Source: Folioceros fuciformis (lineage: Eukaryota). From it: a stretch of 64,000 nucleotides of DNA. The stretch's first letter is position 1, and every line of letters begins with the position of its first letter. A program made the position numbers and the translations under genes. Location of the stretch: assembly GCA_049999805.1 (NCBI GenBank), contig JBNGIO010006382.1:96234-160233 (forward strand). Direction: 5' to 3'. Below are positions 2,950-53,101 of this stretch, in pieces. The notes beneath the pieces were generated by a model. It was not told where the DNA came from. It searched no databases and saw only the letters and a program-made list of their open reading frames with translations.

Positions 2950-5831
2950 TTATCCGGCTGCAACAGCCTCCGGCCGGCTGCCTGCATCCAATGATGAAAA
3001 TTTTCCGGAGGATTCGAACGACTCGTCTTCTCTCCTACCTGAGGATTTCTGGCCTCCGGACCCTGGTCTTGGACTGCCGCTCTTCGTGCCCTCTGAAACC
3101 TTTCCATTCCCTTCCCCTTGCGATATGCTACCCTCATCGTTCTTCAGAGGTTGCTCTTTCGGGGGGGCTTCGTCTCCTCCTCTCAATTTATTCAGTTGCT
3201 CCTGGTATCACCTCACAGACATGAGTCCAATCCATACACAAGACACAGAATCGAGGGCACCAATATGGAGTGAAATGAAATCATTCCAGACACGCTTGAG
3301 TGCCAGGGACATTTGTGCTTACCAAAATGGCCGCATTCTCTGCTTTCAGCTTATTGCATTCTTCATTCAAGTGATTGATTTCAGAGCGAAGTGCCACGTT
3401 CTCCATCGTGAGTGTGTCAACACGTGTTCCGAGCTCCTCACACTCAGCCTATGTGGCAATGCATATTGAGAAAGTTTCTCATTGTGTCCCTTACAAAAAG
3501 AAAACACAAAAAACTCCTGATAGGGCTCCTGCTGACGAGGCCCACTAAAAACACTGGACAAGCATAGGCAGCTTTCGACAGAGAGCGCCGTCAGAATGTA
3601 CCTGCTTTCGCAACCGAGAACGCCTTGCAGACTCCCTGTTCGACTGCTTTCTTCGCTGCCTTTTAACTTCCCTTTCATCCTGCTACGTCACACAAAGCAA
3701 TAAGGGAGATAATGCAGGGAACCTGAGTTCTGCGTTCGACCCAGTGGCTAAGCAAACACGGAACTTGAGTCACAAAGTGATAGGAGGGGACGATTGATTG
3801 TATACCTGCAACCATAACTCAGCAGGGACTCCATCCCGGTTGGGCCCCATGAGTGGAGTACCCGGAGTTCCCGAGACAATTGCACCTGCAGAATTTCCTG
3901 GATTCCGCTTGTTCTTGCCGGCCGCCATTCCAGTCGCCGATCCACTCCAATAATCCATTCCTCCCATGCCTATGCCTAGACTGGTTGTTGGTCCGCCTGG
4001 AGCTGGCTTTCCCACCAGGTGGGGGGGCGCAACAGGTTGGCCTGACGTGGTCCCCGCAGCTGGAACGCCAGGACTTACATATGAACCTCCAGGTTGTGAA
4101 TTATATGCAGGCATACTAGAACCTCCTACTCCCACTCCTGTCAAACCTTCGGTAAGATCAAACTGCAAACTCCCAGGCTGTGGAGGACCCTACAACCCCA
4201 GCCAACCAGACGATACCCTAGACCATGGGACCTTGCACCCACACACCTACACCACGTGAGACTATAAACCCACTTACTTACAAGTGGGGTCTTTGGGCCT
4301 CACCTTCCATCGTCATCTGATCATAATTTCGCTTCCGAGGCATCTGCGAAGCAGCAGGCCCCCAGTTTAGTCACTCACGTCCTGTAATCGTGCTACTCAA
4401 ACAATGCGAGGCAACCACTCAAACTTGCACACGGATAATGCTAACGACTTTACATTAGGCGTACTATCTTCCTCGCTTCCATCGCTTGAGCCATCACTGC
4501 CACTCTCACCACTGGAGACACACAAGTACAGCCATCATTCTCACTGGAGGTCAACTCCCGTTGCTGCACTGGAAGAAAGTGCAACCCTGCACTGAGACTT
4601 TCAAAATGCTCCAAGAAAACATTAGATGAGGATGACAAATGCCATGGCCTACGTTCACATTCATTTGAACACACTGAAGCAGCAGCCCAACGACTACCTC
4701 TGCGAGAAAACCTCATTGGCTGAATTTCCTTTTGCACTCTCACTTCCTTTTCCAGAACCCATTCCAAGACTCCCTAGACTTCCTTTAGACCGCTTCAAAA
4801 GATTTTTCTCTTTTCCTTCAGTCTTGACCTCAGCCTCTGTTCCTGCTGCTTGGGGCTGGATACAGACAGCAACCCTAAGTGTGTCAATCCATACCCACAG
4901 ACTCCAACAGGAGAGAAGGAAAGAGCAGCAGAGTAGGCTCCCATACTGACGAGATGGGAGAGGCTAAACAAACATACCGCAGTGGCTTCTGGTCCACCAG
5001 GTGATGGCATCCCGTACTGTGTGTAGGGATGAGCACCCTGATCCAAACCACAGGCACCTCAAGCAACCATGTATGGCATGGAGCATCCCAACCAAACTTG
5101 ACTGTAACCCTGACACATCACATTTACCTGCGGCATAGAAGGATGGGCGTACATTCCTCCATGAGGATACATAGCACCGTAGGGAGGAGGAGGAGGTGTT
5201 CCGTAAGGTGGCAGCATCTGAGCATGGATCAAGAGTGTGAGATTCCACCCCCAGTCCGAATGTCAACCACAACGCAACTAAACTCAACTCCACTCCAGCA
5301 GCCGGCTGAGCTCCGAACTCACCGAACCACCCCACATGTAAGGGTGAGGCTGAGGGCCGGAGGCGACAGAAGGGGGAAAGTAGCCAGGGGGAGGTTGGCC
5401 ACCAGAATTGTAATACGCCTGCACCACAGGCAAGACACCCTAAAGGCGTGAGCACGGCATTCTAAACCCAGTTGCAAGAGCGTCTCAAAGATCCGAACAT
5501 GACCTGAAACGCTGCGGCCCATTCTGGATACGTGGGGCCGGACGACGCTGCTGTTGGTGCTGGAGGAGCCGCCACAGCGGCCGAGTCCTGCAAAGCTAGA
5601 AACGCATCATTTGCGACGAAAAATTACAAGAAGAAGGGAACCCGACGCAACGGGCTCGTTGGCATTGGACAGACTAAGCAAGGCTAGACCAGTCGCACCG
5701 GGCAAGCACAAGCACAGACAGAGCAGAGCAGCAGCACCAGCACCAGCAGGTTAGACAGCAACGACCGGAGGAGCTCGCTCGCTGGGTACCTTGGCAGCTT
5801 TAGTAGGTGTCCCAATTTCTCCAGTGCCCAT
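2950..5831 (-). CDS. G-box-binding factor (group G bZIP, GBF/HBP-1a-like), multi-exon
   Basis: Spliced exons give MGTGEIGTPTKAAK / YPEWAAAFQ / AYYNSGGQPPPGYF..PHPYMWGG / PPYGTPPPPY / GSDGSSDGSEE. The basic region DEREVKRQRRKQSNRESARRSRLRKQ (about 3602-3679) is followed by the zipper AECEELGTRVDTLTMENVALRSEI. Stop at 2950-2952. Confidence 0.92.
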
Positions 5832-24800: not shown

Positions 24801-26095
24801 GCAAACACCAGAATTTCTCAATCTTATCATACACCAGAAGTCGCAGAACAAACAAGCAATTCCTGGAACCGTCTCTCTGAATGACGGTAAGGATAAACGT
24901 TGCAGGGACACTCAAACCATGCCACAATGCCAGCGGAAAGAAAAGAGCACCTCAGAAAACTACTCACCTCCTCCTGTCTCTCGGTCAGATCTACAGGTTT
25001 CCCATCATACAGCATCTTTACACCATGCGGTTGATAGGGTGGAGGGAAAATAACGCCGTTATGCTCCAGGGTGGACCACTTCTGTCCACCTCCACCGTTT
25101 TTGTCAGCCACCACCACCTTCTTTTTCACTGTCTTCTCAACCTGCCTCGTCCTAGTGGTTTTAGTTTCCTGCACTTTCTTGGAAACCACCTTCGCACCGG
25201 TGCTGCTGGAGACTTTTTTCACGGTCACGGCCTTGGACGCAGAATAGCGCTGTGCGAGGGGGACATCATCATCATCGTCATTATCAGGATCCAGCTCACG
25301 CTTCAGCGGTTCTTCCTTCACCTTGGCCGGCTCATCCTTAGCCTTCCCAGACTGCCTTCCCTTGCCAGCATCCGCCCGTCCAGTCGCTGGTTCCCCCTTA
25401 GAAGTCAGCTTCGCCTTCTTAGCCGCAGGCGAATGCGAAGTCCTACCTGTACCATCTACTGGACGCTTGACCCCGGAGTTCCCATCCTTAACCGGCGCCT
25501 CGGCACCCTTCCTCGCGACGACTCTGCGTTGCGCAAGGGGAAGATCATCCTCATCACTATCACGAAAATCGAGCTCTTCCTTGGCCTTGGCCTTGGCCGC
25601 TCCCGATCCCTTCGCCAGTACGGGAGACGGCTTCAGCTTCTTCGCAGGGTTGGAGCTGCCTGGCTTGTCCTCCAAGGGCCTCTTCCCGGTGCCCGATTCT
25701 GCTTCCTGCTTCACTGCCATTCTCCTCACCATCACCTTCTTCACAGCGGTGCCGGAATCCAATTTCCCGGTCACCGCGGCCTTCCTCCCGACCGCGGCTG
25801 CACTGGTTTCCTGGCCTGGCGGCTTCTCGTCTGCCGATTTCCCGCCATCCGTAGCCGCCATTTGCTGCAGTTTCTTCCTGTACGCCAGGGGCCTTTCGTC
25901 CTTCGAATCCTCCGGCTGCTCAGCCTCATTGTTGTTGCCCAGAACACCTTTCCCGGGCAGATCGGGCTGCATAGCCTGAGCCCTGATTCCTCCTTCTGCT
26001 GCTGCTCCTGCTGCAGGAGCTTGCAGCACGGCCCCGGCGGCCGCAACAGCAGAGTCGCCCTGCCCCTGGCCTAAACTCCTCTCCCCAGCCGTCAT
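21860..26095 (-). CDS. TOP1: DNA topoisomerase I (type IB), multi-exon; the start may extend to an ATG at 26507
   Basis: [78 protein letters not shown], catalytic-Tyr segment [20 protein letters not shown]. Ends [12 protein letters not shown]. Confidence 0.97.
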
Positions 26096-27537
26096 CTTTG
26101 CACCTGCACATGCTCATTCGCGATTGTCATCCTCGTCAGTATGCCCGCCATTGCCTCGATTCTCGCATCCCCAGATCAAGTTGCAGATGACGCCTTCCAT
26201 CATCTCATTCATTTCACAATTCACGGCTCCCAAGAGCAGAAAATCATTCTCACAGTCCATGCACGCATTGCGGGTGAGGCGTACAGCCGGGTGGGTCAAG
26301 GGGGTAAAGGCGTTCCCCTCGCACACCCACGAAAGGGATCCATTCACAAATCGAGCCTTCCTACCTTCCCGAATATCACCACCCCAAAACAAAAACAAAA
26401 ACAAAAACAAAAGACAAAAATCAAACAAAACCTTACTTTCACCACCAATAAGCTAGCCCCACCAACGCCTAACAGGTCCCCCTAAAAACAATCCGCATAC
26501 TTAACATCCCGTACTGCCGGAGCGTGCAGCCAGGGATCCGCACGACCAACCGTTTCCTGTGCGAAGGCTTCACAGACCCCGTTTCAGCCTGCCCATCTAA
26601 CTCTTAATATAAATTTCTCAAACCAAAAAAAGATGCATACTGAGTTCTAACTTCAGTAACAAGATTAGCAAAGACCATAAATTCCTACTTAAGAATTTAT
26701 TATTTAATTCGGGACTCAAAAGAAAACAAACTTATTACTAAAAGTTAAACTTTATCACTTAAGGTTTCTTAAGATTACTTTTCTTTCTAATCTAATTTTA
26801 GTTTAATCTATTTGGAAGACTAGTACTAACAAGCATAGGAAAAATAATACTTGTATGCTTTCAATCAAACACATAGAACATAAGAAAACTTATTTCATGT
26901 CATGTAATACTTACAAACTTGATATGTCAAAAATACTTTTTATATTTTCACGACTGCTGTTTTTCTCAAGTTATTGACCATTGGTGTAGCATATATAGTA
27001 ATGAAAATATAAAAAAGTATAATTTTGGAGATTTATTATTATTATTATTAACATATTCAGTTTCTTTTCACAAGTGAAGAAACTTAACAAAACCGGTTTG
27101 GCTGAAAGAGTTCTTTAAGATTTTTTTATTCATTAATTTTATGATAATTAATATCCTTGGTCTTCAAAAGATAGATTATGGTCACTTAATGAGATATAAT
27201 GTTCTTAGTCCATGGAAGATAGACTAAGATTAGATAGTGAGATAAACTATACCCTAAATTTGATAAATTTATTAACTCTAGTTTGGTTGATTAGATACTG
27301 ATTGTAAGAGTTTTTAACCAATCAGCCATCATCAAGTCTGATCCAAGCAACTGTATTGGATTTGCTGAAAGAGGGCCTTCATTGGAAGGACAAATAACCC
27401 TTACTTAGACTAAATGTACATTATTTTAGGGTCTGGAGTCTCGAGCCCACCGGGCAGCGCGAGCCGTTTCCTTGTGGAATTGACTGTGGAAGGCCCGACT
27501 GTGTGAAAGCCCGAACAGACTACGGAGGCTAGCGTCC

Positions 27538-28780: not shown

Positions 28781-29686
28781 TCAAGACTGGCAGCGCCATC
28801 AATTCCAACTCATCATCAGGCGCCATTCCCCATTCCCTCCTCTTGAGCTCCTGAACCGGTTCCGACCAGTTTGGACGCTGTCCTTCAAGATGGTGCCACA
28901 GCGTTTTTTGTCCAGCCATTTTGTGAGGTGAAATAATAGGAGTTATCAAGCCCCCTCCTCCGCTGCAGTTATTTCTTGAAATTGACCACATTCTAAGCAG
29001 ATAATTATGGCACACGCTGGTAGCTAGTCTAGCCTAATTCATGTCATGGTTAGCCTTGACATTGTAGGTCAGTAAACCTGTCGTGTTGAGGGCTCGAAAG
29101 CAAAGACGTCGGAAAGACGGAATGAGCTAGATAAAAGACGACCTCCGTGAAATCACGTGTAGGAACGAATTTGAAATGAAATGCCGGCGGAAACGGGGTC
29201 AACATCTGTCTTCCGTCCGAGAACAATGACAGTCCGCTGTAGCACACACAGCCTTCGAGCCCCTCGTCTACTTCACTGGCAGCCGTATGTTCGTGACATG
29301 CTGATCGTGATCTCCGCGCCTCCATTGCCGGCGAGAGTACCCAAGCAGCAGACGGAGCGGGTGGAGGCCGGCGGGCCTGTCGGAGCGGTTGTACGGGTTG
29401 TTGCTGGTCGCTGTTGCAGGCCAGGCCATTGTGAGTTGGCTCTCATCTGTTGTTGCATTGTTGTTGGCGCCTCCGTTGCCGTCCGGAAGCTTACCGCGAA
29501 GCTGCCGCGCGGCGTGAGCTCGCTGCTCTAATTCATGTGCAGATTCTGAAGCCGGTCGTGATTCCGTTGCAGCTCTCTAGCTCCGAGGCTTGAAATTGTG
29601 GCAGGTTGGGAGTGAGAGATTCTACAGGAGTAACGGCGTGCTGGAAGCGAGCAAGCCGGGGCAGCGGGGTGGCTGAGCCCGGAGAG

Positions 29687-31669
29687 ATGGCGGTCAGTCG
29701 CTACGTGGTGGAGGTGGAGAAGGGGCGGCCCGGAAGCGAGGGCTCCCCGTCCGTCGGGCCCGTGTACCGTAGCGTGTTCGCCGAGGACGGATGTCCCGCG
29801 CCCTTGCCCGGGGTGGAGACGGTGTGGGACGTGTTTGCGCGCGCCGTGGGGAAGTATCCTGACAACAAGATGTTAGGCCACCGGAAGATCGTAGGCGGGA
29901 AGGCTGGGGAGTATGTTTGGGAGACGTACAAGGAGGTGTATGAGAAGGTGCTGCAGATCGGGGCTGCGATGCGGCATGTGGAAGTGGAGCCGAAGTCGAG
30001 GGCAGGGGTCTACGGGGCAAACTGTCCGCAGTGGGTGACGGCAATGGAGGCCTGCAACGGGCATTCCGTGTACTGCGTCCCGCTGTATGACACGCTGGGG
30101 GCTGAGGCGGTGGAGTTCATTCTGAAGCACGCGGAGATCCGCCTTGTGTTTGTGCAGGAGAGCAAGATTGGCGCTTTGTTACCGTCGTTGAGGAGTTGCC
30201 TGGAGTTGGTGAAGACAGTGGTCAGTTTCGGCGAGGTGTCGGAGGAGCAGAAGCGGGAGTTGGAGGGGTTGGGGATTAAGGGGTACTCTTGGAGTGAGTT
30301 TTTGCAGCTGGGGAAGGAGAACCCGGCGGAGCTGTCGCCGCCGGCGGCGGGAGATGTGTGCACCATCATGTATACTAGTGGGACTACCGGAGAGCCGAAG
30401 GGAGTGCGCTTGACTAATGAGAGTATCGTCAGCGTCATTGCTGCAGGGGACTGTGTGCTCAAGAAACTCAATTTGCGGATGACTGAGGATGATGTTTATT
30501 TGTCGTTTCTGCCTTTGGCTCATATTTTTGACCGGTCGATGGAGGAGCAGTTCATCTACACCGGGGCGTCCATCGGGTTCTGGCAGGGGGATGTGAAGAC
30601 GTTGTTGGATGATTTGGAGGCCTTGAAGCCTACCTTTTTCTGTGGAGTGCCTAGGGTGTTTGACCGAATTTACTCGGGAGCCACTGCTAAGATCACAGAG
30701 TCCGGGTGGTTGAGGAAGAAGATATTCGACTATGGGTTCAGGACCAAGTTGGATTCCTTGAAGAAGGGGGTGAAGCAAGAGAATGCATCTCATCTATTTG
30801 ATCTGTTGCTGTTTAAGAAGATCAAGGCGAAGTTTGGAGGAAGAATTCGTCTCGTGATGTCTGGTGCTGCGCCCCTGGCCCAGCACGTTGAAGAATTTCT
30901 GAGAGTGGCCACATGTTCTATGGTTGTCCAGGGTTATGGTTTAACTGAGACCTGTGCTGGCAGTTTTGTGTCCATTCCGGACGTCATCGGGATGCAGGGA
31001 ACTGTGGGTCCTCCACTGCCAAATATTGAAGTTCGGTTGGAGTCTGTGCCTGAAATGAACTACGATGCACTCGGTGCCATCCCTCGAGGCGAGATCTGTA
31101 TCCGGGGCAAGAGTTTGTTCTCTGGCTACCACAAGAGGGATGATCTCACCAACGAGGTTTTGGTGGACGGATGGTTCCACACCGGTGATATTGGTGAATG
31201 GCAACCAGATGGTGCCCTAAAGATCATTGACCGCAAGAAGAACATTTTCAAGTTGTCTCAAGGGGAGTATGTGGCAGTGGAGAATTTGGAGAACGTTTAT
31301 GGTCTATGCGCTGACGTCGACTCCATTTGGGTCTATGGCAACAGCTTCGAGTCATACCTTGTGGCAATTGTCGTGCCTAACAAGGATGCGCTGGAGAGTT
31401 GGGCAAAGGCTCATGACGAGGCCGGTCACTTCGAGGCTTTGTGCAAAAGCCCCAAGGCTAAAGAGCACATACTATCGCAACTCAATGCCGTTGGTAAGAA
31501 GAGCAAGCTAAAAGGTTTTGAAGCCATCAGGGCAGTTCATCTGGATCCTGTGCCCTTTGATCTGGAGAGGGATCTGCTAACACCGACTTTCAAGAAGAAG
31601 CGACCCCAGCTGTTGAAGTACTATCAGAGTGAAATCGATGCCTTGTATGCAGGCTTGAAGAAGCCCTGA
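29687..31669 (+). CDS. Long-chain acyl-CoA synthetase (LACS4/5-like), coding region intronless
   Basis: Single ORF of about 660 aa from ATG 29687: PSVGPVYRS, AMP-binding IMYTSGTTGEPKGV, YLSFLPLAHIFDR, QGYGLTETCAG, GWFHTGDIGEWQPDGALKIIDRKKNIFKLSQGEYVAVE. Confidence 0.96.
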   Translation: MAVSRYVVEVEKGRPGSEGSPSVGPVYRSVFAEDGCPAPLPGVETVWDVFARAVGKYPDNKMLGHRKIVGGKAGEYVWETYKEVYEKVLQIGAAMRHVEVEPKSRAGVYGANCPQWVTAMEACNGHSVYCVPLYDTLGAEAVEFILKHAEIRLVFVQESKIGALLPSLRSCLELVKTVVSFGEVSEEQKRELEGLGIKGYSWSEFLQLGKENPAELSPPAAGDVCTIMYTSGTTGEPKGVRLTNESIVSVIAAGDCVLKKLNLRMTEDDVYLSFLPLAHIFDRSMEEQFIYTGASIGFWQGDVKTLLDDLEALKPTFFCGVPRVFDRIYSGATAKITESGWLRKKIFDYGFRTKLDSLKKGVKQENASHLFDLLLFKKIKAKFGGRIRLVMSGAAPLAQHVEEFLRVATCSMVVQGYGLTETCAGSFVSIPDVIGMQGTVGPPLPNIEVRLESVPEMNYDALGAIPRGEICIRGKSLFSGYHKRDDLTNEVLVDGWFHTGDIGEWQPDGALKIIDRKKNIFKLSQGEYVAVENLENVYGLCADVDSIWVYGNSFESYLVAIVVPNKDALESWAKAHDEAGHFEALCKSPKAKEHILSQLNAVGKKSKLKGFEAIRAVHLDPVPFDLERDLLTPTFKKKRPQLLKYYQSEIDALYAGLKKP

Positions 31670-41892: not shown

Positions 41893-42781
41893 TTACAACT
41901 TTGTATTCAGACCTGCGGGACCAGCATCATCTCTTTCCAGGTTGTCCACAACTTCTCTGTGCATCTCCAACCTCAGTGACAAGTACAAAGAAGAACTCCA
42001 TCCTCTGCTTGCCAGCGCTTCGGCCTCTCTCAAGGCCCCCGCTGTAGTATCGAGCGAATTGTTGAAAGCACCGTCGACTATCCCAGCTTGTAGAGCCATG
42101 TCCGCTGTGTACTTTTTCTGCGTAGTAAACAATAGAAAACCTGTTTAGTTCGACACGCTGCTCCACTGGCACTGGCAGTGTGCAGTGGGGCCCCAGATCT
42201 GTGATGTGAGGTGCAATAATGCGCTCGGGTTGGTCACAGCAGACGAAACCATTGCAAACGCTAAACATTGCAGGACAAAAAAACATTCTCACCCCGGAGA
42301 GGATTGCATCCCTGAGTACACTCGGGCACAGCTTCCGCCTCATGAGCAGCATAGGGCCGCGCGGAATAGGAATGTCCACATCCACTTCACTCATGTAAAA
42401 GAATCCCCGATCCCTCCGCATGTAGCGATAATCGTGTGCCATAGCCAACAGCGCTCCTCCAGCGCACGTATGTCCACACAAAGCCGCCACCGTCGGCATG
42501 CTTAGATTCATAAACGCCGCCAGCAGCCGGTTGAGGCACCGTGCAAGCGCCGTCTTTCGCGTATCATCCGTCCCCCACTCCAGATCCAAACCATTGCAGA
42601 AATACCTTCCCTCGTTCACAGTCACCAGCGCTGCCGCAGCCTCCTCCCGGGCAGCCTTCACCGGCTCCAAAGCATCAAGAATTTCCTGCACGGAGCCCGG
42701 ATTCAGCCTGTGCTCTCCCTCTCCCAGCAGCGTGAGAATCCACACTCGCCCGCGCCGTTCCAAGCTGCACATCGAGGCCAT
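41893..42781 (-). CDS. Peroxisomal delta3,delta2-enoyl-CoA isomerase (ECI-like, crotonase fold), 2 exons
   Basis: MCSLERRGRVWILTLLGEGEHRLNP, EGRYFCNGLDL, MPTVAALCGHTCAGG, HDYRYMRRDRGFFYMSEVD; exon 2 ends with a PTS1-like TKL*. Confidence 0.92.
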
Positions 42782-43514
42782 GCCGGCCAGGAACTCGATA
42801 CCACCTCCTTCTTCTTCCTGCGATCACATGCCGATCGCCACGAATTGCAGAGTCCGCACTCCACACTGATATTACAGGATTTGCGAACATCCGGTCGTAT
42901 CGCGGAATCGACTGACCGGGATCGGGATCCGGCGGAGGAAGCCTCGACGAATGCACGCCGTTTAACGGACGTTAATCCCCGTTCCGTTTATGGGAGTAGG
43001 GCCCGTTGCGCCTGGTGGGACCGTGATTGAAGCGAGTAAACTCTCTCTTCTGCGCGGGTCTGGCGGCCGGGCTAGACGTCTCTGGCAGGCGCTGGCGCAG
43101 GCTTGAGCGTTTCCGGGCGTGTCTAGCCCGGTCGCTCACTGCTCTCTTGCAAGCGTTCTCCTCTCCCGCTCCTGTCTCTGTCTGTCCCGCTCCCGCTGCT
43201 GCTCCATTTCGTGCCTCCATCTCCGTCCTCTTCCGCGTCCGTCTTTCAATTTTTTGCTGCTAGCTTTGGCGCTCCCTCCTCGCGCGCCTGCGTCTGGGAG
43301 CTTCTCACGGCAAAGCGTGGGGCACGGACCTGCTCGAGGGAGAGAGGAGGAGGTGGAGGAGAAGGAGGAAGAAGAGGAGTAGAGGAGCAGGACGAGCAAG
43401 AGCGGCGGTGGTGGCGGGTTGTGCGGAAGCTTCCGAGCAGGCGCCGACGGGGAAGATGAGCTTTTAGAGCAGCGGCGGCTCGCCGGTGGAGCAGCAAATA
43501 AGCATTGGAGCACC

Positions 43515-45005
43515 ATGGCGTACTCGGGGGGTCCCATCACCACGGAGAGCATTCAAAAGGTTGCTCTGAACCATAGCGGGGCTGGCGGGAATTTGTTTCA
43601 TCGTCTGTCTGTCTGCGTGCGGTTGGGGTGTTCGCTAGTGTGGGGCTTTAGGATTGTGGAAATATTCTGGTGGGCATGGAGTTGCAGTTTGCGTGTGCAG
43701 CTCCGTCCTTGTGGGACGTGGAGAGCAACGTGGAGTGAAATCCTGTGGAGTCTGGCTTTTGAGAGAGGGAATTGCAGGAGATGGAGGAGAGGGAGGAGTG
43801 TTGCGGTGTGAAATTTGTGGCGACTGCTGGAGAGGTTCGCGGGGCAATAGCGCCATTGTGGCTGTGAATTGCTGTGACGGCCGACTGGTTTGGCTCGCGC
43901 GGAATTGTTTTTGGATTCTGTGCTGTACTAGTCAAGGGCTGTGCTGCCGAGTTTCTTGTACTGAAAACCTAATGTTTGACGGTCAAGCTCAGCTAAGCTC
44001 TCAAGGTGTGTCCGTGTCTGCCTCTGGCAAGCCAGGTCCGATTCTTGTCAGAGTTCCTCCGTATCATTTTTTAGGACACAGATGTGCCGACATTAAGAAA
44101 ATCTTCTGTTTACTTACGGTGGGGTGGTTTTCGCTGGTTGCAGTATCTGGACGAGAATAAGCAGCTGATTCTTGCTATCCTGGACAACCAGAATCTTGGG
44201 AAGCTGAACGAGTGTGCATCGTGAGTCTTGTTGCTTCTACTTCGTTGTCTTGAGGATGTATGCAGGAACGTAAGACTGTTGTGTGACGAGGAGAGGCTCT
44301 GATGTTGAGGGACTTACCTGTTGCGCATCCACAGGTACCAGGCCAAGTTACAGCAGAATCTCATGTATTTGGCAGCAATAGCTGATGCACAACCGCAAGC
44401 ACCTCAAACGTCAGCTCAGGTGAGGAACATGTACTTGCAGCCGTTATACTTGACTTTCTCCTGCAGGGGTCATCATGTAATTTCACTTCTTGAGCGTTGC
44501 CTGTTCCGTGCAGGGTCCTGGGGCGGCTGCAGTCCAACAAGGGCAGTACCTCCAGCAACAGCAGCAGCAGCAGCAGCAGCAGCACATGGCCCAGCATCCA
44601 GGCCTGCTTCAGCAAGGCCAACGCAACCCAGCCCAATATATGCAGCAGCAGCAGTCACATGCGGCTCATCAACAGCAGCAAGGAATGCACGGGGGACAGC
44701 AAGGCATGGTGCCAGGAGGCACCAACGCCATGCCCCACATGATGTCCACGGACCCTTCACTTGGCGGCAACGGGACCACGTCCTCCGCCGGTGGCTTCCC
44801 TGACTACGGCCACGGCGTGAAGGCAGGACCTGGCTCGAGGGAGGGCCTCCAATCTGGAATGGGCATACAGCATGTAGAGATGCGAAGCAGCGGGGGCCCG
44901 AGCTCAGAGCACATGGGGGTGGCTGGTAGCATGGGCCAGGGGCACGCCCGAGACGACTCCGAGCCTTCCTATTTGAAGGCCTCAGATGAAGACGGCAGCA
45001 CATAG
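43515..45005 (+). CDS. GIF: GRF-interacting factor (GIF/AN3, SSXT domain), 4 exons
   Basis: ITTESIQK|YLDENKQLILAILDNQNLGKLNECAS|YQAKLQQNLMYLAAIADAQPQ followed by a Gln/Gly-rich tail. Confidence 0.95.
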
Positions 45006-45646
45006 AGACATCCCAGAGCGTGCGAAGCAAATGGTGTATGTCCTGCTCTTCTGTTAGTTGCCCGGTGGTTTGCGGATTCGAATGTAGTGAGTTATCTAGC
45101 TAGGAAGGAAGTGACTAAACACAGCTGCCTTGGCAGCCCAACCTCCAGTTTTTCCTCTCGCCCCCTTTTTGTCCTTTTGCTGTTGAGGTTGTCGGACACA
45201 TTTCCTTACTACAGTACTTCCGTATATAGTTGGAATAGGTGAATACATGTGAATACCCAGGTAGGTACATCCATACATATATAACATATGTGCGTAGATT
45301 CCTTCTTTTTATTTCGGTTCTTACTCCTTTTTGGTTCAGAGAGCGCTGTGGGTACCACCATTCGTTTCCTTCTCCACGGGACAGGAGGGTGGCAAGGGAA
45401 CCAGGGTTTTCGGACTACTGTACCGTGTTTGCCTGAGGGCCTGCTACGTCCCTTGGTTTCCTGCACTCTACGTGTAACAGCTCAGAACAGAGCTTGAGCT
45501 CACCGTCTCTTTGTACGGGATGCATGTTTGTGGATTTTGTGATGGATACGACGCAGACAAATTTGATGAGGTGCAAGAGTCGGGGGCAGGTGCATGATCT
45601 GGAGCGCTGGGGTTGGTGGGTTCTGTAGAAGCTGAGAAGAGCGGCC

Positions 45647-48600
45647 ATGGATGCAGAGGGGCAGGAGGTGGAGTCAGCAGGGGGCGAGAGCTGCGTACTG
45701 GGAGGAGGAGGAGGAGGGAGCGGGAGGGCCGAGGGTGATGGTGAGTATGGACGGCAGGAGGAGGAGGAGGAGCTGGTGTACCCCTGGGTGGGCCTTCTGG
45801 GCAAGGCAGGCGGGTCTGTTGGGGAGGCGGCTGTAAGGGCTACCTTCTCTGAGTTCAACCCCAAGCGGGTGGTGGTGTTCGAGGGCGATGGCCGGGAGGC
45901 GGGATCGGCTGTGGCGGCTCTGCTCTTCGACAAGAGCCTAGAGGGGTATCAAGACGGTTTCGCGTTCGAGAGGTGTTTTCTGGACAAGGGACGGCATAGG
46001 AAGGCGTGGGGCAGGGCTGCTGGCCGCGGGGCTGGCGGGGCAGGGGAGGATGGATCCCGCTCTGGCAGCTTCTATGGGTGGCTGGCGGGGCGGGAGGACT
46101 TCTACAAAGGGGATGAGGTGGGCAACTTCCTTTTCCAGCATGGCGAGCTCAAGTCCGTGGCTATGGTGGCGGAGGAGCAGCAGGCCAAATACGAGCGGCG
46201 GCTGGAGTTTTTGAGCCTCGCCAGTGCCAAGAAGCAGGAGAGCATGGCGCAAGAAGTGGAAAAATTGCGAGCCCTGGAGGCCGATCTGGAGCGGAAGAAT
46301 GAGGAGCTGCGGGGGCTCAGGGCGGACTCGGCTCGGCAGGTGCTGCGGGCCACTCAGAGCCTGGAGGCGGAGCTGGAGAGCGCTAGGTTGGAATTGGAAA
46401 AGCGGGACGCGGAGCTGGGAGCTGTGAGGGCGGAATTGGCTGCTGCGAAGGCCGGGCTTGCGGGTTTGGGAGGCGAGAAGAGGGAGGAGGAGGTGGGGGC
46501 GGAGCTGGAGAAGAGGACTGCCGAGATTGAGGATTCCGAGAGGCGGATACAGGGGGCTCTGGCTGCGCAGGTGCTGCAGGCGGAATTGGAGAAGCGGAAT
46601 GAGGAGCTTCGGGCTGTGAGGGCAGAGTTGGGCAGGAGGGAGGAGGAGGTGGGGGCTCTGAGAGCTGAATCTGCCAGGCACGTGTTGCAAGCGACGCAAG
46701 CTTTGGAGGGGGAGTTGGAGAAGCGGAATGCTCAGCTGGGAGCTGTCACGGGCGAGTTGGAGAGGACCTGCGCGGAGCTGGGAGCTGTGAAGGCAGGGAT
46801 GGAGAAACGGGGGGAGGAGTTGCGCGCTCTTAGGGCGGATTCTGCCAGGCAGGTGCTACAGGCGACGCAGGCGCTGGAGGCTGAGCTGGAGAAAAGGAAT
46901 GCCCAGCTGCGGGTTGTGGAGGCGGATTTAGCCAGCCAGGGTTTGGAGACTAGTCGGTACAAGGAAGCCACGGAGGCCTTGGAGGCAGAGTTGGGAAGGA
47001 GGAGTGGCAATTTGCGATTCTTGCAAGCGGAGGTTGGAGATTTGAAGATGATGTGGGGAAGTTTTAAGGAGAACTTCGTCGGTGAGGTTTTGAGGGCAAT
47101 CGAGGCTGCCAGAGCAGATTTTGAGAGGAAGAGGGAGGAGCTGGTGGCCTTGGTTGCTGGGTATGGTGTTCGAGGGAGGCTGGCAGAGGAGATGAGGAGT
47201 AATGAGGTGGTGGGAGGTGTGAAAGCGCAGGTGCGGCAGGAATCGCATAACTTAGATGCAGAGGGGGGGAGGAGCATGGAGGAAGAGTTGCAGGCGTCGC
47301 AGTCTTCGGAAGCAGAGATTCAGAAAGGGAATGTAGAAACGTCCGCTTCGAGGGCAGAGAGCTCGAGTCAGAGTATGCGAAAGGTGCAGAGTCTGGAGGC
47401 GGAGTTGGAGAAGAAGAATCGGGAGTTGTTTGCTCTCAAGGCAGAATATGCGAGGCAGATTGTGCAGGCGACGCAGGAGTCGCAGAAGGAAGCGGAGCAA
47501 TTGCGGCAAGAGCTGAAGAAGCGGAATGTAGAGGCTGGGGCTGGAACCCATCCTTCTGCTGACGGAAGTGCAGAGACGCTGCAGGCCCTGAATGAGCGAG
47601 CGGATCTGGTGTGGGCCATAGAATCGCTGAAGGAGATTGTGGAGAGGATGAGGGAGGAGAAGGAGGGCCTGAGCCTGCAGCTGGAGGAGTCTGTCAAGGC
47701 ACGCGTTGAACAGCAGGTTCAATTGGAGAAGATGAGGGCGGAGCTGGAATGTAAGATAGAAGAAGTGCAGGATACTGCTAGAGCTTCGGTGAAACAATCG
47801 TTTGAATTTGCCTTGATTCAAAGCAACCATGGCAAGCAGCTCAGGGATCTCGGGGAGAGGTTGGCTGACAAGACACGAGCGTTAGAGTCTATGACTCGTC
47901 AGAAACAAGACCTGCACGACCGGATGGGGCTGCAGAGCGAGGCTCAGTCTTCGTCTGTGCAAGAATTCTACCTTGAAGTTATGGTTTGGGCCAAGGAGCT
48001 GGCCGACCGGCATAATGTTATCAACAGTCTGCATGAGACCTTGGAAGCGAAGGAACAGGAGGCTGCTGCCTTGAGGGCAGACGTAGAGAGGAGCCATAAG
48101 GAGTTTTCTAGGGGCATGTTGAAGAGTGTGGAGGCTTCTCCACCAAGAGCTGACAATCTGGTGTTACCACCCAAGCAGGACAACCGTCGGCCGGAAAGAG
48201 CACGGCAGAAGACAGTGGCGCAGGCTGGGCCCGTTGTGACAAACACCAGACAGAGTGAACGCAGAAAAGTTGGCAGTCGACCTTCTAGATGTGGTAAACC
48301 TCGCACCTGTGGTGTTGTCGGAGTTGAAGGGGAACTCCGTCTGTCGCTCAATTTCATTGCTTCTCAGCGCGGGCCCGTCTAATCTCACGATACATCTCGT
48401 ACGGTGTTCCTGACAACTGGTTGCGTTGTTGCCCTTGGCAGCGAGGAAGTCTCAAAGCAAAGACCGAAACCACCGCTGGGAAGAAGATGACGACGACGAC
48501 GGCGAGGACGACGAGGATGACTATCGTGCTAAGAAGGCCAGGAGAAGTGTCTCGATCGCAGGGCTACCTCTGACACTCCAGTGGAATGTGGGGGAGTTAG

Positions 48601-49104
48601 TGTTTCTGGAGTCGGAGGACGTACACAAGTGGCCTGCTGTGGTAGGCAGCGCATCCAGATAACTCTTTGGGCATGTGAGCTTCCTGTCTCGCTCTAGCGC
48701 ACAATCTGACACTTCTTGGAGCTGTGATACTTCATCTCAGGTTCAGCAGCGTGGTGAGAATGAGCCGCAACAACCTGGCAAGGTGCCTGTCCGAATGTGT
48801 GGGTCAGAGGAAACGTAAGATGCTAAGATTCGGCCGCTCGTTGCGCTCGAGGTGCTGCTGCTTGTGCCTGAACTGTCGACCGTGTCTGTGTGTCAGGATT
48901 GTTGTGGACGAAGAATTACTGGGCAAGTTCACCGCAAACGATCGCCTCCTGCTGCCCAACGCAGTGCAGTCTGATCCCAAGTTCAAGGTTGCAGTCGACC
49001 AAGCTTGTGCTCTCTGGGACCAACAGCAGGAACAGATCCGTTCTCGACGCAATCAGAACCTGGCAACTAAACGGAACCAGTCACCCGCGAAGCCGAGAGG
49101 CTAG
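45647..49104 (+). CDS. XS domain + long coiled coil + C-terminal PWWP-like domain protein (exons 45647-48293, 48442-48641, 48741-48814, 48897-49104)
   Basis: XS-like LVYPWVGLL..FSEFNPKRV..LLFDKSLEGYQDGFAFERCF..FYGWLAGREDF..VGNFLFQHGELKSV; about 700 aa of heptad-rich coil; phase-consistent GT-AG splicing to WNVGELVFLESEDVHKWPAVVQQ..VPVRMCGSEETIVVDEELLGKF..DPKFKVAVDQA. Confidence 0.8.
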
Positions 49105-50580
49105 GACTTTGGGTCAATATCCCAAGGGCCTCCAGAAATGACCCGTCACGGGCTCGGAAGGTGCGTTCTCAGCTGCGCAGTCTCGGGTGAGGGAGGACTT
49201 GAAGGTTATCCTCATGGGCGCGTCAGAATCCCAGCGGAAAGCGCAGGATTCATGTTTCGAGCTGTGGCGGCAAGGAGGCCAGGAAAATTGCAGCTGCACC
49301 CCCAGCTGCGAAGGTAACGTGGATGCAGGTTATGACCAAGCTTCAGAAGCATAGCAACGACCGTCTTCATCTGTGCCGAGGCTTGAGAGCGTGCGACGTC
49401 TGTGTGTGAAACTTGCACAGGACGGCGGTAGGAAGAACGTCTTGGCTCTCGGAATCGCCATCACCCAGTCTTTTAGTTGCTGCTAGAAGCCTGTGTTGTG
49501 ACAGACAGGAACGTGGTCCTCAACCACCACTCGTGTGGTCTCCATGGAGGACAAGGCTGACCGAATGATTCTCCAATCTTAGTTGCGATTCTCGGGATAA
49601 GCTATGTGGGGACACTTCAATGCCGCGTACGCAAAAGGCAAGTGTAAAGCTGGTCCTAATGGGACCTTGAATTCGATGGTATGACTTGACATGTCCAACA
49701 AGTGGTGATCTCCCCGCCCTCGCATGCTCCTCCCTCGGACCTCTTCCGCAATCTGTAACTTCACTTTCGCTCCAGTGGCCTGCAGGTTCCTGAAAGGACA
49801 ACGTAAAAGACAGTCTTCCTGGGAAAGCGTGGGGTCGCCGAAAGGCCCACTCGGCGCCGCTCTTCCAAGTCATGAGTGGAGACAGGAACTCGCGATCCCG
49901 ACGGAGGTAGGTACGAGATTAGCGCCGCTTTGTCCTAAAACCTGACCTCGAAGGGCACCCAATGTAACCCGCCGTAGCAACAGAGTCAACTTTGCTTAGC
50001 AAATCAGTCGTCCAACCACCGAACATCTCACCTACCTTGAGGCTTGACTCTTGTAGTAGATAGAGGAAGGCAAGGCGCACTGCCATGAGCTTCGACTCGC
50101 AGTCAGTGCTCCCGATCAATGCCTGTGTGTACGTCGCTGTTGCCTAATACTGATTCAGCAAGTGCCTCGGGTGCCTGGAACCTGGCAGAAAAGATTGTGA
50201 GAATACCACTTGTGCTTGAGAATCATGGCCAGAGGCATCTGCCATGTGGCAGAAGGTTGGAGCAGCTGTCGTATTCGCATGGCCTTCTGGAGTCATGATG
50301 ACGGTGGAGGGCCATCGCTGTTGCAGGGAAATGAATACGTACTAAGCTTTCTGGTTTCAAATTGGTGAGGCAGCAACCACACTGGCCGGCTCTGTTGAGC
50401 GTTTGTCTGCCGTATGCAAACACGTTTTTGGACTGTTGCGAGCTTGGACCACAGTCGTTGCAGTATCCGGTGGGCAGTTCGAACGTCCAGATCCCAAGTT
50501 TCAGTGGCTGGCAATGTGCTCCAGGTTGCAGCCGTCCAATTGTGCGTGCAATCGCCTGGACTCGGCTTTGCAATCGTGAC

Positions 50581-53101
50581 ATGGTTTGTCCGAAAGCCAA
50601 CCGGCATCCCAGCATGTGTGGAGTCCCAGGAAGGCAGCTTGTGTGCAGGGCGATCGTGGTGCTGCTTTTGGTGACAATCTCTGGCGGAGCTTGCCAACCT
50701 GGACCGGGAGACATTGGGATTTTGCTGGCCTTCAAAGGTGGTGTTGTGGAAGACCCGCTGGCTACCTTGAATGACTGGAAAGCACCTTCTTATCCCGATG
50801 CAACTGCAACACCCTGTCATTGGGCAGGCATTTCGTGCAACAAGAATTCCCGTGTTGTGGCAGTGAGTCTTGCACGCAAAAGGTTGAATGGGTCCATTGA
50901 CGCTTCCATTGCCAGTCTGCCGTTCTTGCACACCTTGGATCTGTCCTCCAACCATTTCTCTGGGAGCGTTCCAACCGCGCTGGCCAAGGCCTGGCGTTTG
51001 ACGCAGCTGGTTCTGAGCTCCAATTTGTTGTCTGGTCCCATTCCGCCTGAGCTGGGAAATCTAACCAGATTGCAGGTGCTCAAGCTGCAGGACAACCGAC
51101 TGACTGGGTTCATTCCACCTCAACTGGCCAACTGCACATCTCTGACTGCGCTAGATGTTGGGGGCAACAAGCTCATCGGGGGCACAATTCCGCATTCTCT
51201 GGGACGGCTCAAGAACTTGTCGTCTCTCCGAGCAGCAGGCAATAACATCAGTGGCGAGATTCCTTCAGAATTGGCGCACCTAACGAGCTTATCCCTCCTG
51301 GATCTGAGGGACAATCAGCTAGGAGGGAATTTATTGCGGGTCCGCTGGAGAAATTTGACTCAACTCACCTCTCTCAAGTTAGGATACAATCAATTCACGG
51401 GGAACTTCAACAGATTGCCAAGATTATTTGGGAGGCAGCATCCGCTCCAGGTTCTGTCACTGACGAAGAACAAGCTCATTGGGTCCCTTTCTGAAGACCT
51501 TGCCCATGTGTGGGCAAACTTGACCACGATAGACGTGAGTTCAAATGGGTGAGTGAATTTGCAGCTGTTCTCATCTCGTTTGTGTGATATTGAGCTTCTC
51601 CACAACCGCAACTGACGGATCCACACCACGTTCGCTGCACAGGTTGACAGGAGCAATGCCACGCTCCCTCTTCTTTCTGCAACAATTACAGGCGTTGAAC
51701 TTCGGAAGCAATAATCTAACGGGAGGCATCCCTGACAGCCTAGGGAACTGTACAAACCTAGCCAACATCAACCTCTCCCGCAACAGTGTTTCAAGTGCCA
51801 TCCCGTTCAACATATACTCGCTCACCAAGCTTTCGATTCTGGATCTTTCTCACAACAACATCACGGGTGGCATACCTCCCAATGAGGCCACCCAGCTTTT
51901 CCCTGAGCTCCTGCAGTTAGACCTGTCCTATAACAAGCTAACGGGCTACCTACCATCTGACCTGGGCTCTTATCTTCTGAAACTCATTACCTTAGATCTG
52001 TCCCACAACCTATTTGAAGGGTTCATCCCCATCAGTCCCATCTTTGAGTCTAAAGTGCCGGCGTTGCAGATCTATGATCTTTCTGCTAACCAGCTTAGAG
52101 GGCCGGTACCGGCGAGCTTAGGCACTCTTCGAAACCTGCAATTCTTGTCCTTGTTTCAGAACAGATTCAGCGGCAGCATTCCTGATTCTCTTGGGAATTG
52201 TACGTCTCTCCAATGGCTGGACTTGCAACAGAACAGCCTGGAGGGAAACATACCTGACTCGCTGAGCAACCTGTCAGCCATCAGGGTGTTCAGCCTGTCG
52301 GACAATGATCTTACAGGCCCCATCCCTGCCTGGATAGGAACCAGTTTTCGGGAGTTGCAAATCTTGAACCTTGCTCGAAACAAGTTTGTGAGCTCTTTCC
52401 CGCAGGACCTTTCTGGGTTGCTCGGATACTTGCAGGAAGGGAGCGCAGACTTGAACAAAACTCTGGACTTCGAGATTCCAATCGTCATCAAGGGAAACCC
52501 TCAGACCTTCATATATCTGCTACAGACCACAACGGCCATTGATGTGTCGGCCAATGCTCTGGACGGGTACATTCCTGATTCCTTGGGGAATTTGGTGGGT
52601 TTGCACTACTTGAATATGTCCTACAACAATCTACAGGGCAGAATTCCATCAAGCCTGGGGCGCCTCCAGCTGCTGGAATCCCTAGACTTATCATCCAACG
52701 ATCTGTCAGGTGAGATTCCGTCGACTCTATCCAACTTGCCCTACATTGCCAGCTTCAACGTTTCCTACAACAACCTGACAGGACCCATACCGACCGGCCC
52801 TCAATTCCAAGGGTCATTTGGTGTGTCCTCATTCGAGGGCAACCCTGGACTGTGTGGCTTCCCACTCCCGCCCTGCACTTCAGCACCACCTGAGCAAACA
52901 CCGGATGCTCCAGGGGCAACATCTGACGAGAGCTTCATGGACTTCACAGCGTTTGCCATAGCGTCCACTGTGTCCTTCATCGCCAGCCTTGGTATGACAC
53001 TGTTCACCAATGTTGGATGGAATTACATCAGTGGGGGACGGGGACCGCGACTAGAAGAGCCCGAGAGCTACTTCAGACGATACGGAGCTTTTGCAGGATG
53101 A
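50581..53101 (+). CDS. LRR receptor-like protein (no kinase), 2 exons (intron 51549-51642); start codon uncertain
   Basis: Signal peptide, LRRNT (LLAFK..DPLATLNDW..PCHWAGISC), many LxxLDLSxNxLxGxIP repeats, an island followed by four LRRs, GNPGLCGFPL, a TM helix and a short cytoplasmic tail. Confidence 0.92.

Follow-up and report, generated by a model that had tools for sequence, protein, structure and literature searches.

A four-exon XS-family gene of Folioceros fuciformis with a long helical rod and a PWWP-like C-terminal layout: a possible RNA-to-chromatin adaptor

The XS proteins SGS3, IDN2 and FDM are core silencing factors of plants. Their build is simple: zf-XS, XS, a coiled coil and XH in IDN2 and the FDM proteins; zf-XS, XS and a coiled coil in SGS3. 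To our knowledge, chromatin contact of XS proteins is known only through partners. We here discuss a gene of this family in a stretch of 64,000 nucleotides from Folioceros fuciformis (GenBank assembly GCA_049999805.1, contig JBNGIO010006382.1, positions 96,234 to 160,233 of the forward strand), hereafter called the window. It lies on the plus strand at 45647-49104, has four exons, is expressed from the nuclear genome of a streptophyte plant and belongs to the XS (SGS3/IDN2-like) family. Its product of 1042 amino acids (aa) combines an XS domain with a very long helical rod and a C-terminal module that resembles PWWP domains in layout. A first-pass annotation of the window had taken it for a candidate RNA-to-chromatin adaptor, a role that we consider plausible but unproven.

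IDN2 acts on chromatin via SWI3B (PMC3560041), and SGS3 is brought there via CHR11 (PMC11947192). The coiled coil of IDN2 is described as essential for homodimerisation and its C-terminal XH domain as the binding site of the partners IDP1/2 (PMC3342958).

Gene model and transcript

The first exon sits in the longest open frame of the window, a stop-to-stop open reading frame (ORF) of 917 codons at 45629-48382. Upstream of the first methionine codon (45647), at a distance of 18 nt, the frame has a TAG (45626-45628). The coding part of exon 1 (45647-48293) accounts for residues 1-882 and the first base of codon 883. Exon 2 (48442-48641, residues 883-949) contributes an acidic run, then a basic cluster and, from 48588, WNVGELVFLESEDVHKWPAV; exon 3 (48741-48814, residues 950-973 plus two bases) a loop and GKVPVRMCGSEE; and the coding part of exon 4 (48897-49104, residues 974-1042) IVVDEELLGKFTANDRLLLPNAVQSDPKFKVAVDQACALWDQQQ and the stop TAG at 49102-49104. 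The introns in between are of the GT..AG type and small: 148 nt in phase 1 (48294-48441), 99 nt in phase 0 with an in-frame TAA (48642-48740), and 82 nt in phase 2 (48815-48896). All three junctions are canonical, i.e., GTG/gtaaac...ggcag/CGA from 48293 to 48442, GTG/gtaggc...ctcag/GTT from 48641 to 48741, and AAC/gtaaga...gtcag/GAT from 48814 to 48897. The spliced coding sequence measures 3129 nt, and the joined frame stays open to its TAG. The peptides on which the first-pass annotation had built its C-terminus were recovered at their places, VGELVFLESEDVHKWPAV in the frame 48414-48662, VPVRMCGSEET in 48663-48818 and IVVDEELLGKF...KFKVAVDQA in 48679-49104.

Support for splicing comes from a public run, X1, which is the sole run, from one study, that matched 45400-49400 and is presumed to be RNA by guess only. 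It holds 87% of the sampled words of that interval, and three of its contigs could be aligned. The most telling one, of 3581 nt and depth 85, matches without a single mismatch at 45728-48292, 48441-48640, 48740-48814 and 48897-49400. It thus omits exactly 148, 99 and 82 nt, each with GT..AG ends, and therefore looks like a processed mRNA. As its position 3344 corresponds to 49400, it runs about 237 nt further, which makes 49105-49400 the minimum extent of the 3' untranslated region (UTR). The second contig is collinear with the window over 45400-45718, so no upstream coding exon is spliced in there; the third is a low-depth piece of 235 nt on a short acidic-repeat stretch. No intron-retaining contig was seen among those aligned, contigs being able to show presence, not absence, of minor forms. 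Because one contig joins all four exons with the frame open over 1042 codons, exons 2-4 belong to this gene rather than to another one, and this transcript goes beyond the exon-1 stop (48380-48382). The three in-phase junctions of the first pass hence stand.

XS domain, helical rod and relatives

The XS domain, which the first-pass annotation had put at about 45770-46160, is placed by Pfam (PF03468) at 45764-46102, residues 40-152 (E 8.7e-12; 45.8 bits, cut-off 25). The match takes in profile positions 1-111 of 113, and the family motifs LVYPW, YGW.A..D.Y and GELK are retained in the alignment. The sole meaningful sequence match in the PDB is chain 4e8u_A (residues 39-196, E 1.4e-10), whose alignment extends into the coiled-coil segment of that chain. 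The depositors gave the molecule an Arabidopsis locus label as its name; we take the chain to be the XS chain of IDN2, and over the stretch compared its residues are also present in a zf-XS/XS/XH-type ORF of a metagenome locus (L001). The domains that accompany XS elsewhere were sought in vain, as the earlier annotation had noted: zf-XS (PF03470) gave no Pfam match at E<=10 and none with a local hidden Markov model (HMM) from stored zf-XS segments; XH (PF03469) gave no Pfam match at E<=10, be it with the exon-1 product or with the frames of exons 2-4, nor did the spliced protein match a local HMM from stored XH segments. The XS profile results place the gene in the XS family; the zf-XS and XH results keep it from being filed as an orthologue of IDN2/FDM or SGS3.

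Shortly after the XS domain, at residue 167, a helical, coiled-coil-like rod is predicted to begin, which reaches residue 829 (46145-48133). AlphaFold2 draws it as helices over residues 167-271, 277-431, 435-505, 509-533, 544-630, 642-760 and 769-829, in a model of the exon-1 product that rests on a 3-row alignment, with a mean predicted local distance difference test score (pLDDT) of 57.8 and mostly 60-84 in the rod blocks. Of the some 700 residues of coiled coil claimed in the first pass, a long helix of about 660 residues is thus upheld by the model; the pairing into a coiled coil and the dimerisation would follow by analogy with IDN2. In its composition E, A, L, R and Q are abundant, and E, K, R, Q, A and L together make up 0.47-0.80 of every 40-aa window.

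The rod is built from diverged repeats. They include a 164-nt pair spaced 171 nt (57 aa) apart and 73% identical, a 33-nt unit of the ELEKRN type (11-aa core) with 11 copies, and direct DNA repeat families D1-D7. Tandem Repeats Finder returned no row within the gene because these repeats are too diverged. A motif A-R-(Q/H)-(V/I)-(L/V)-(Q/R)-A-T-Q recurs at residues 229, 343, 400 and 602; as A-R-Q-V-L-Q-A-T-Q of the rod (46267-47745, plus strand) it occurs also in the close relative P0001, and its role may be that of a binding site, not just of heptad filler. The distal rod (47564-48136, plus strand, residues ~640-830) carries the best-conserved blocks outside XS that are common to P0001, LVWA..LK, ARASVKQS.EF.LIQS.H..QL.D and Y.E.MVWA.EL.DR, none of which matches a Pfam family. 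The rest of exon 1 (48134-48293, residues 830-882) is a basic tail with a net charge of +8 in residues 841-880, pLDDT below 50 and no secondary structure.

Relatives were collected with residues 1-200 by HMMER from 1.84 billion representatives, which yielded 62 proteins at E<=0.001, four at 1e-10 and one at 1e-30; a word-based search with the same residues gave a single match. When all 62 were scanned with Pfam, 60 had XS, 41 zf-XS, 19 XH and none PWWP. P0001 is the one close relative among them, an ORF call of 771 aa extending into an intron (XS 56.6 bits). It shares with the window protein the N-terminus MD.(E/D)GQ..ESAGGES. Its identity to residues 1-200 is 65% by BLASTP and 73% over the HMMER-matched stretch. 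In the first 461 aligned positions it is 47%, in the distal rod 35%, and close to the end of the rod there is a conserved block. P0002 (382 aa, 42%) likewise has XS without zf-XS, and both proteins are singletons. In a quick, midpoint-rooted IQ-TREE run on 61 XS segments, the careful search being unfinished and 2 of 63 rows omitted for an XS envelope below 90 aa, the window protein pairs with P0001 on a stem of 0.72 (Shimodaira-Hasegawa-like approximate likelihood ratio test, 99). The pair falls into a group of 10 rows (96) together with P0002 and a few zf-XS/XH proteins; the other 51 rows stand apart.

The last exon is conserved as well. A search with the exon-4 peptide among proteins of similar length found one match, P0063 (72 aa), at E 1.6e-14 with 37 of 66 positions identical (56%), KFTANDRLLLPNA and ACALWDQQQ being invariant; among longer proteins none of 31 candidates matched. 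P0063 and the exon-1 homologue P0001 each lie on a contig of 11070 nt, and the equal size suggests that the tail is linked to the XS gene in the relative, too.

Other searches added little. With the exon-1 product, the Atlas search pointed to Streptophyta XS clusters at 0.75-0.80, which is a lead only. Neither the XS domain nor the tail has a paralogue in the 64-kb window. Of 236 pattern matches in a metagenome scan, 4 loci were confirmed. Two of these, L001 (76-2058) and L003, had their ORFs read and were dismissed as relatives, both being ordinary IDN2/FDM-type genes. They represent a zf-XS/XS/XH plant gene, once intron-less and transcript-like and once with introns; the identity of L001 to 4e8u_A over the stretch compared means that plant material sits inside metagenome records.

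The C-terminal module and its interpretation

The tail encoded by exons 2-4 contains, at about residues 932-1018 (48588-49029), a module laid out like a PWWP domain of the Royal family. The blocks VGELVFLE, HKWPA, VRMCG, LGKF and FKVAVDQA align in order, with block positions at residues 932, 944, 966, 974, 982 and 1003 of the spliced protein. This was put to a block-pattern test, in which BLOSUM62 and bounded spacers served to score the spliced tail on the successive blocks that the first pass had given for PWWP. With a fixed 2-residue spacer the score was 49, compared with 22.7 +/- 6.4 for shuffled tails, and it was reached by 3 of 2000 shuffles and by none of 264 natural windows. With a spacer of 2-5 before the W-P-A block it rose to 76 (shuffles 26.9 +/- 6.5, maximum 52; z 7.5). 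None of 5000 shuffles attained this value, nor did any of the 692 natural controls, i.e., 499 windows from 63 stored proteins and the exon-1 product (maximum 49) and 193 pieces of ORFs elsewhere in the window (maximum 60). Chance thus falls far short of explaining the layout.

The fold of the last exon agrees with it. Folded alone, the exon-4 peptide forms helices at residues 13-25 and 27-59, with a pLDDT of about 90 over 31-50, and the conserved block FK.A.D.ACALWDQQQ is a confident helix; a helix is what one expects after the five-stranded PWWP barrel. We consider it probable that the module has a PWWP-like fold, and the gene is filed as PWWP-like in layout only. Ahead of the module, an acidic, charged linker and the basic cluster RAKKARR (48525-48545, exon 2) are found. 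The cluster resembles a nuclear localisation signal (NLS), and together with the linker it points to a nuclear protein. Which ligand the module would bind is suggested by its aromatic cage. At the positions that would form the cage in a tentative alignment, only the W of HKWP is aromatic; a V stands three residues before it and an M in the FFG block. As only one of three cage aromatics seems to be kept, binding to DNA or a nucleosome surface is more likely than methyl-lysine reading, which is doubtful.

The picture that we infer from all this is the following. The rod would pair into a parallel dimer in the manner of the IDN2 coiled coil. RNA, in the form of a duplex or of a small RNA paired with a nascent transcript, would be held by the two XS domains of the dimer, and the C-terminal module, some 90 residues at the place of XH in IDN2/FDM, would anchor the dimer on DNA or nucleosomes. 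A single polypeptide would thus perform what IDN2 does through SWI3B and SGS3 through CHR11. That the protein is a nuclear XS dimer which takes RNA by its XS domains and attaches to DNA or nucleosomes by a PWWP-like tail is the best overall explanation, a tentative one, slightly more prone to fail in some part than to hold in all.

A number of observations weigh against it. The block pattern was written by a reader who had already seen the sequence, and the wider spacer was chosen to suit PWWP domains in general, so the test is not an independent family model; nor does it tell a PWWP domain apart from Tudor or another small barrel. PF00855 had no match at E<=10 with single-exon peptides, a result of little weight for pieces of 24-68 aa. 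Searching the PDB by phmmer with the exon-4 and exon-2 peptides yielded no match at E<=10, thus no PWWP structure, and a profile from the two-row exon-4 alignment found only a Trp-tRNA synthetase at E 0.78. With HKWP in place of PWWP and MCG in place of FFG, the canonical cage is missing. Clear relatives are few, P0001 and the neighbour ORF P0063, perhaps P0002, and all are unnamed ORF calls. The AlphaFold2 model of the XS part (residues 1-160), where an RRM-like fold would be expected, has a pLDDT below 50 and, resting on three rows, is unreliable. Finally, an XS domain is no guarantee of binding to double-stranded RNA (dsRNA), since IDP1 and IDP2 do not bind it (PMC3342958).

Some further attempts were simply uninformative. 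Pfam found nothing relevant in P0063, and the Atlas search with the exon-4 peptide gave no usable match. PWWP reference loci, sought with back-translated G-[YF]-P-W-W-P-A in viral contigs, had to be discarded, all 29 being chance or out-of-frame hits, and PF00855 matched in none of 14 control genomes and not in the one virus record.

The tail might instead be a lineage-specific protein-binding module that replaces XH and recruits a partner, so that the protein would work indirectly, like IDN2 or SGS3. This would agree with the failure of every exon peptide to match a PWWP profile, with the degenerate cage positions (HKWP, MCG) and with the fact that the helical KFTANDRLLLPNA...ACALWDQQQ, not the presumed barrel strands, is conserved best; the C-terminal domain of IDN2 also sets an example of partner binding (PMC3342958). 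Against it stand the blocks VGELVFLE, HKWPA, V.MCG, L.KF and F..AV.QA, which follow each other at PWWP-like spacing, unmatched by shuffles and controls alike, and the NLS-like cluster and charged linker ahead of them, and we regard it as rather unlikely. More remote still is a long coiled-coil scaffold, for example a nuclear or cytoskeletal one, with a divergent XS domain that does not bind RNA and without any role in RNA silencing. The rod, after all, accounts for some two thirds of the chain, the XS domain scores only modestly (45.8 bits versus 81-251 bits in nine other XS proteins scanned), the pair with P0001 sits on a long stem in the quick tree, and there are XS proteins which do not bind dsRNA (PMC3342958). 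Yet nearly the whole XS profile is matched with its motifs intact, and XS is the part best conserved in P0001 (65% by BLASTP or 73% in the HMMER stretch, versus 35% in the distal rod), which makes a mere scaffold quite improbable.

That the four-exon model itself is an artefact, be it a contig mis-join or exons of another gene behind a protein that ends at 48380-48382, hardly deserves belief. The guessed kind of run X1, its origin from one run of one study and the tendency of contigs to miss rare isoforms would leave room for it. A mis-join by chance, however, would not cut at GT..AG and take out exactly 148, 99 and 82 nt. Three canonical, in-phase introns are spanned by a single contig with 0 mismatches, which leaves the frame open, and the ORFs that correspond to exon 1 and the last exon in the relative reside on contigs of equal size.

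We thus return to the nuclear XS dimer with a DNA- or nucleosome-binding tail. In its most far-reaching version, the protein would be a built-in RNA-to-chromatin tether of a non-angiosperm plant lineage, composed of XS, a dimeric rod of about 660 residues and a degenerate PWWP-type DNA/nucleosome-binding domain, and would replace the partner links of IDN2 (XH/IDP, SWI3B) and SGS3 (CHR11). This is possible, with the balance tipping somewhat against it. If true, it would hint at another way in which early land plants, in the course of their evolution, linked silencing RNAs to chromatin. The joining of XS to a chromatin or DNA module in one natural protein would also be a 'Rosetta-stone' link, arguing that direct chromatin contact is ancestral to the family, and would offer a simple one-protein system for studying RNA-guided chromatin tethering. 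Should the tail not be a PWWP domain, there would still be a new expressed XS architecture, without zf-XS, without XH, with a giant repeat-built rod and a conserved tail, so far seen in very few organisms. A literature search for XS and PWWP in one protein (XS domain, SGS3-like, PF03468/PF00855), covering texts outside supplements and InterPro architecture tables, found none. Together with the lack of PWWP in all 62 XS relatives, this fits an undescribed architecture, provisionally so in view of the scope of that search.

Neighbouring genes and known systems compared

The neighbours of the gene in the window are ordinary plant genes. Just upstream on the plus strand (44309-45005), a Q-rich exon scores 26.0 bits with SSXT (PF05030, E 6.9e-06), the cut-off being 26.2, and looks like part of a GIF/AN3-type co-activator gene. 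As the first contig record of X1 extends 844 nt upstream of 45400, the 5' UTR of the XS gene, or read-through, may reach the end of this SSXT gene. Downstream (50335-53101, plus strand), adjoining frames of 405 and 514 codons with LRRNT_2 and many leucine-rich repeats (LRRs) constitute a plant LRR receptor-like gene, whose continuity is interrupted near 51552-51557, by an intron or a change of frame. Farther away, a single frame of 691 codons (29594-31669, plus strand) contains a full AMP-binding domain (PF00501, E 4.2e-82), with AMP-binding_C below its cut-off; this AMP-binding enzyme gene appears to be intron-less. On the minus strand, finally, there are frames at 24827-26113 and 41927-42823, of which one holds the start of the eukaryotic topoisomerase I DNA-binding fragment (PF02919, E 7.2e-15) and the other an enoyl-CoA hydratase/isomerase (PF00378, E 3.5e-12).

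Among described domains, the module at the C-terminus is closest to PWWP (PF00855) in block order and spacing, i.e., G-[DE]-L-V-[FW], x4, ..W-P-A, a loop of about 17 residues, V..xG, L..F and the F..AV..A helix, which in the exon-4 fold follows the presumed barrel. It differs in that the motif starts with H-K instead of P-W/H, in having MCG instead of FFG, and in the missing Pfam and PDB matches, single-exon peptides having been the queries. Motif and spacing seem to resemble the HDGF/LEDGF type with its P-H-W-P variant, a lead rather than a result.

With SGS3, the window protein shares the combination of XS and coiled coil without XH. In contrast to SGS3, it lacks zf-XS and has an extra conserved C-terminal module, and its XS domain falls outside the main cluster (51 of 61 XS rows in the quick midpoint-rooted tree). 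With IDN2/RDM12 and the FDM/IDP proteins, it has in common an XS domain directly before the coiled coil and a distinct C-terminal domain, and 4e8u_A is its nearest structure. Unlike these proteins, it has neither zf-XS nor XH; its rod is about three times longer and built from repeats, and its C-terminal module is unrelated to XH.

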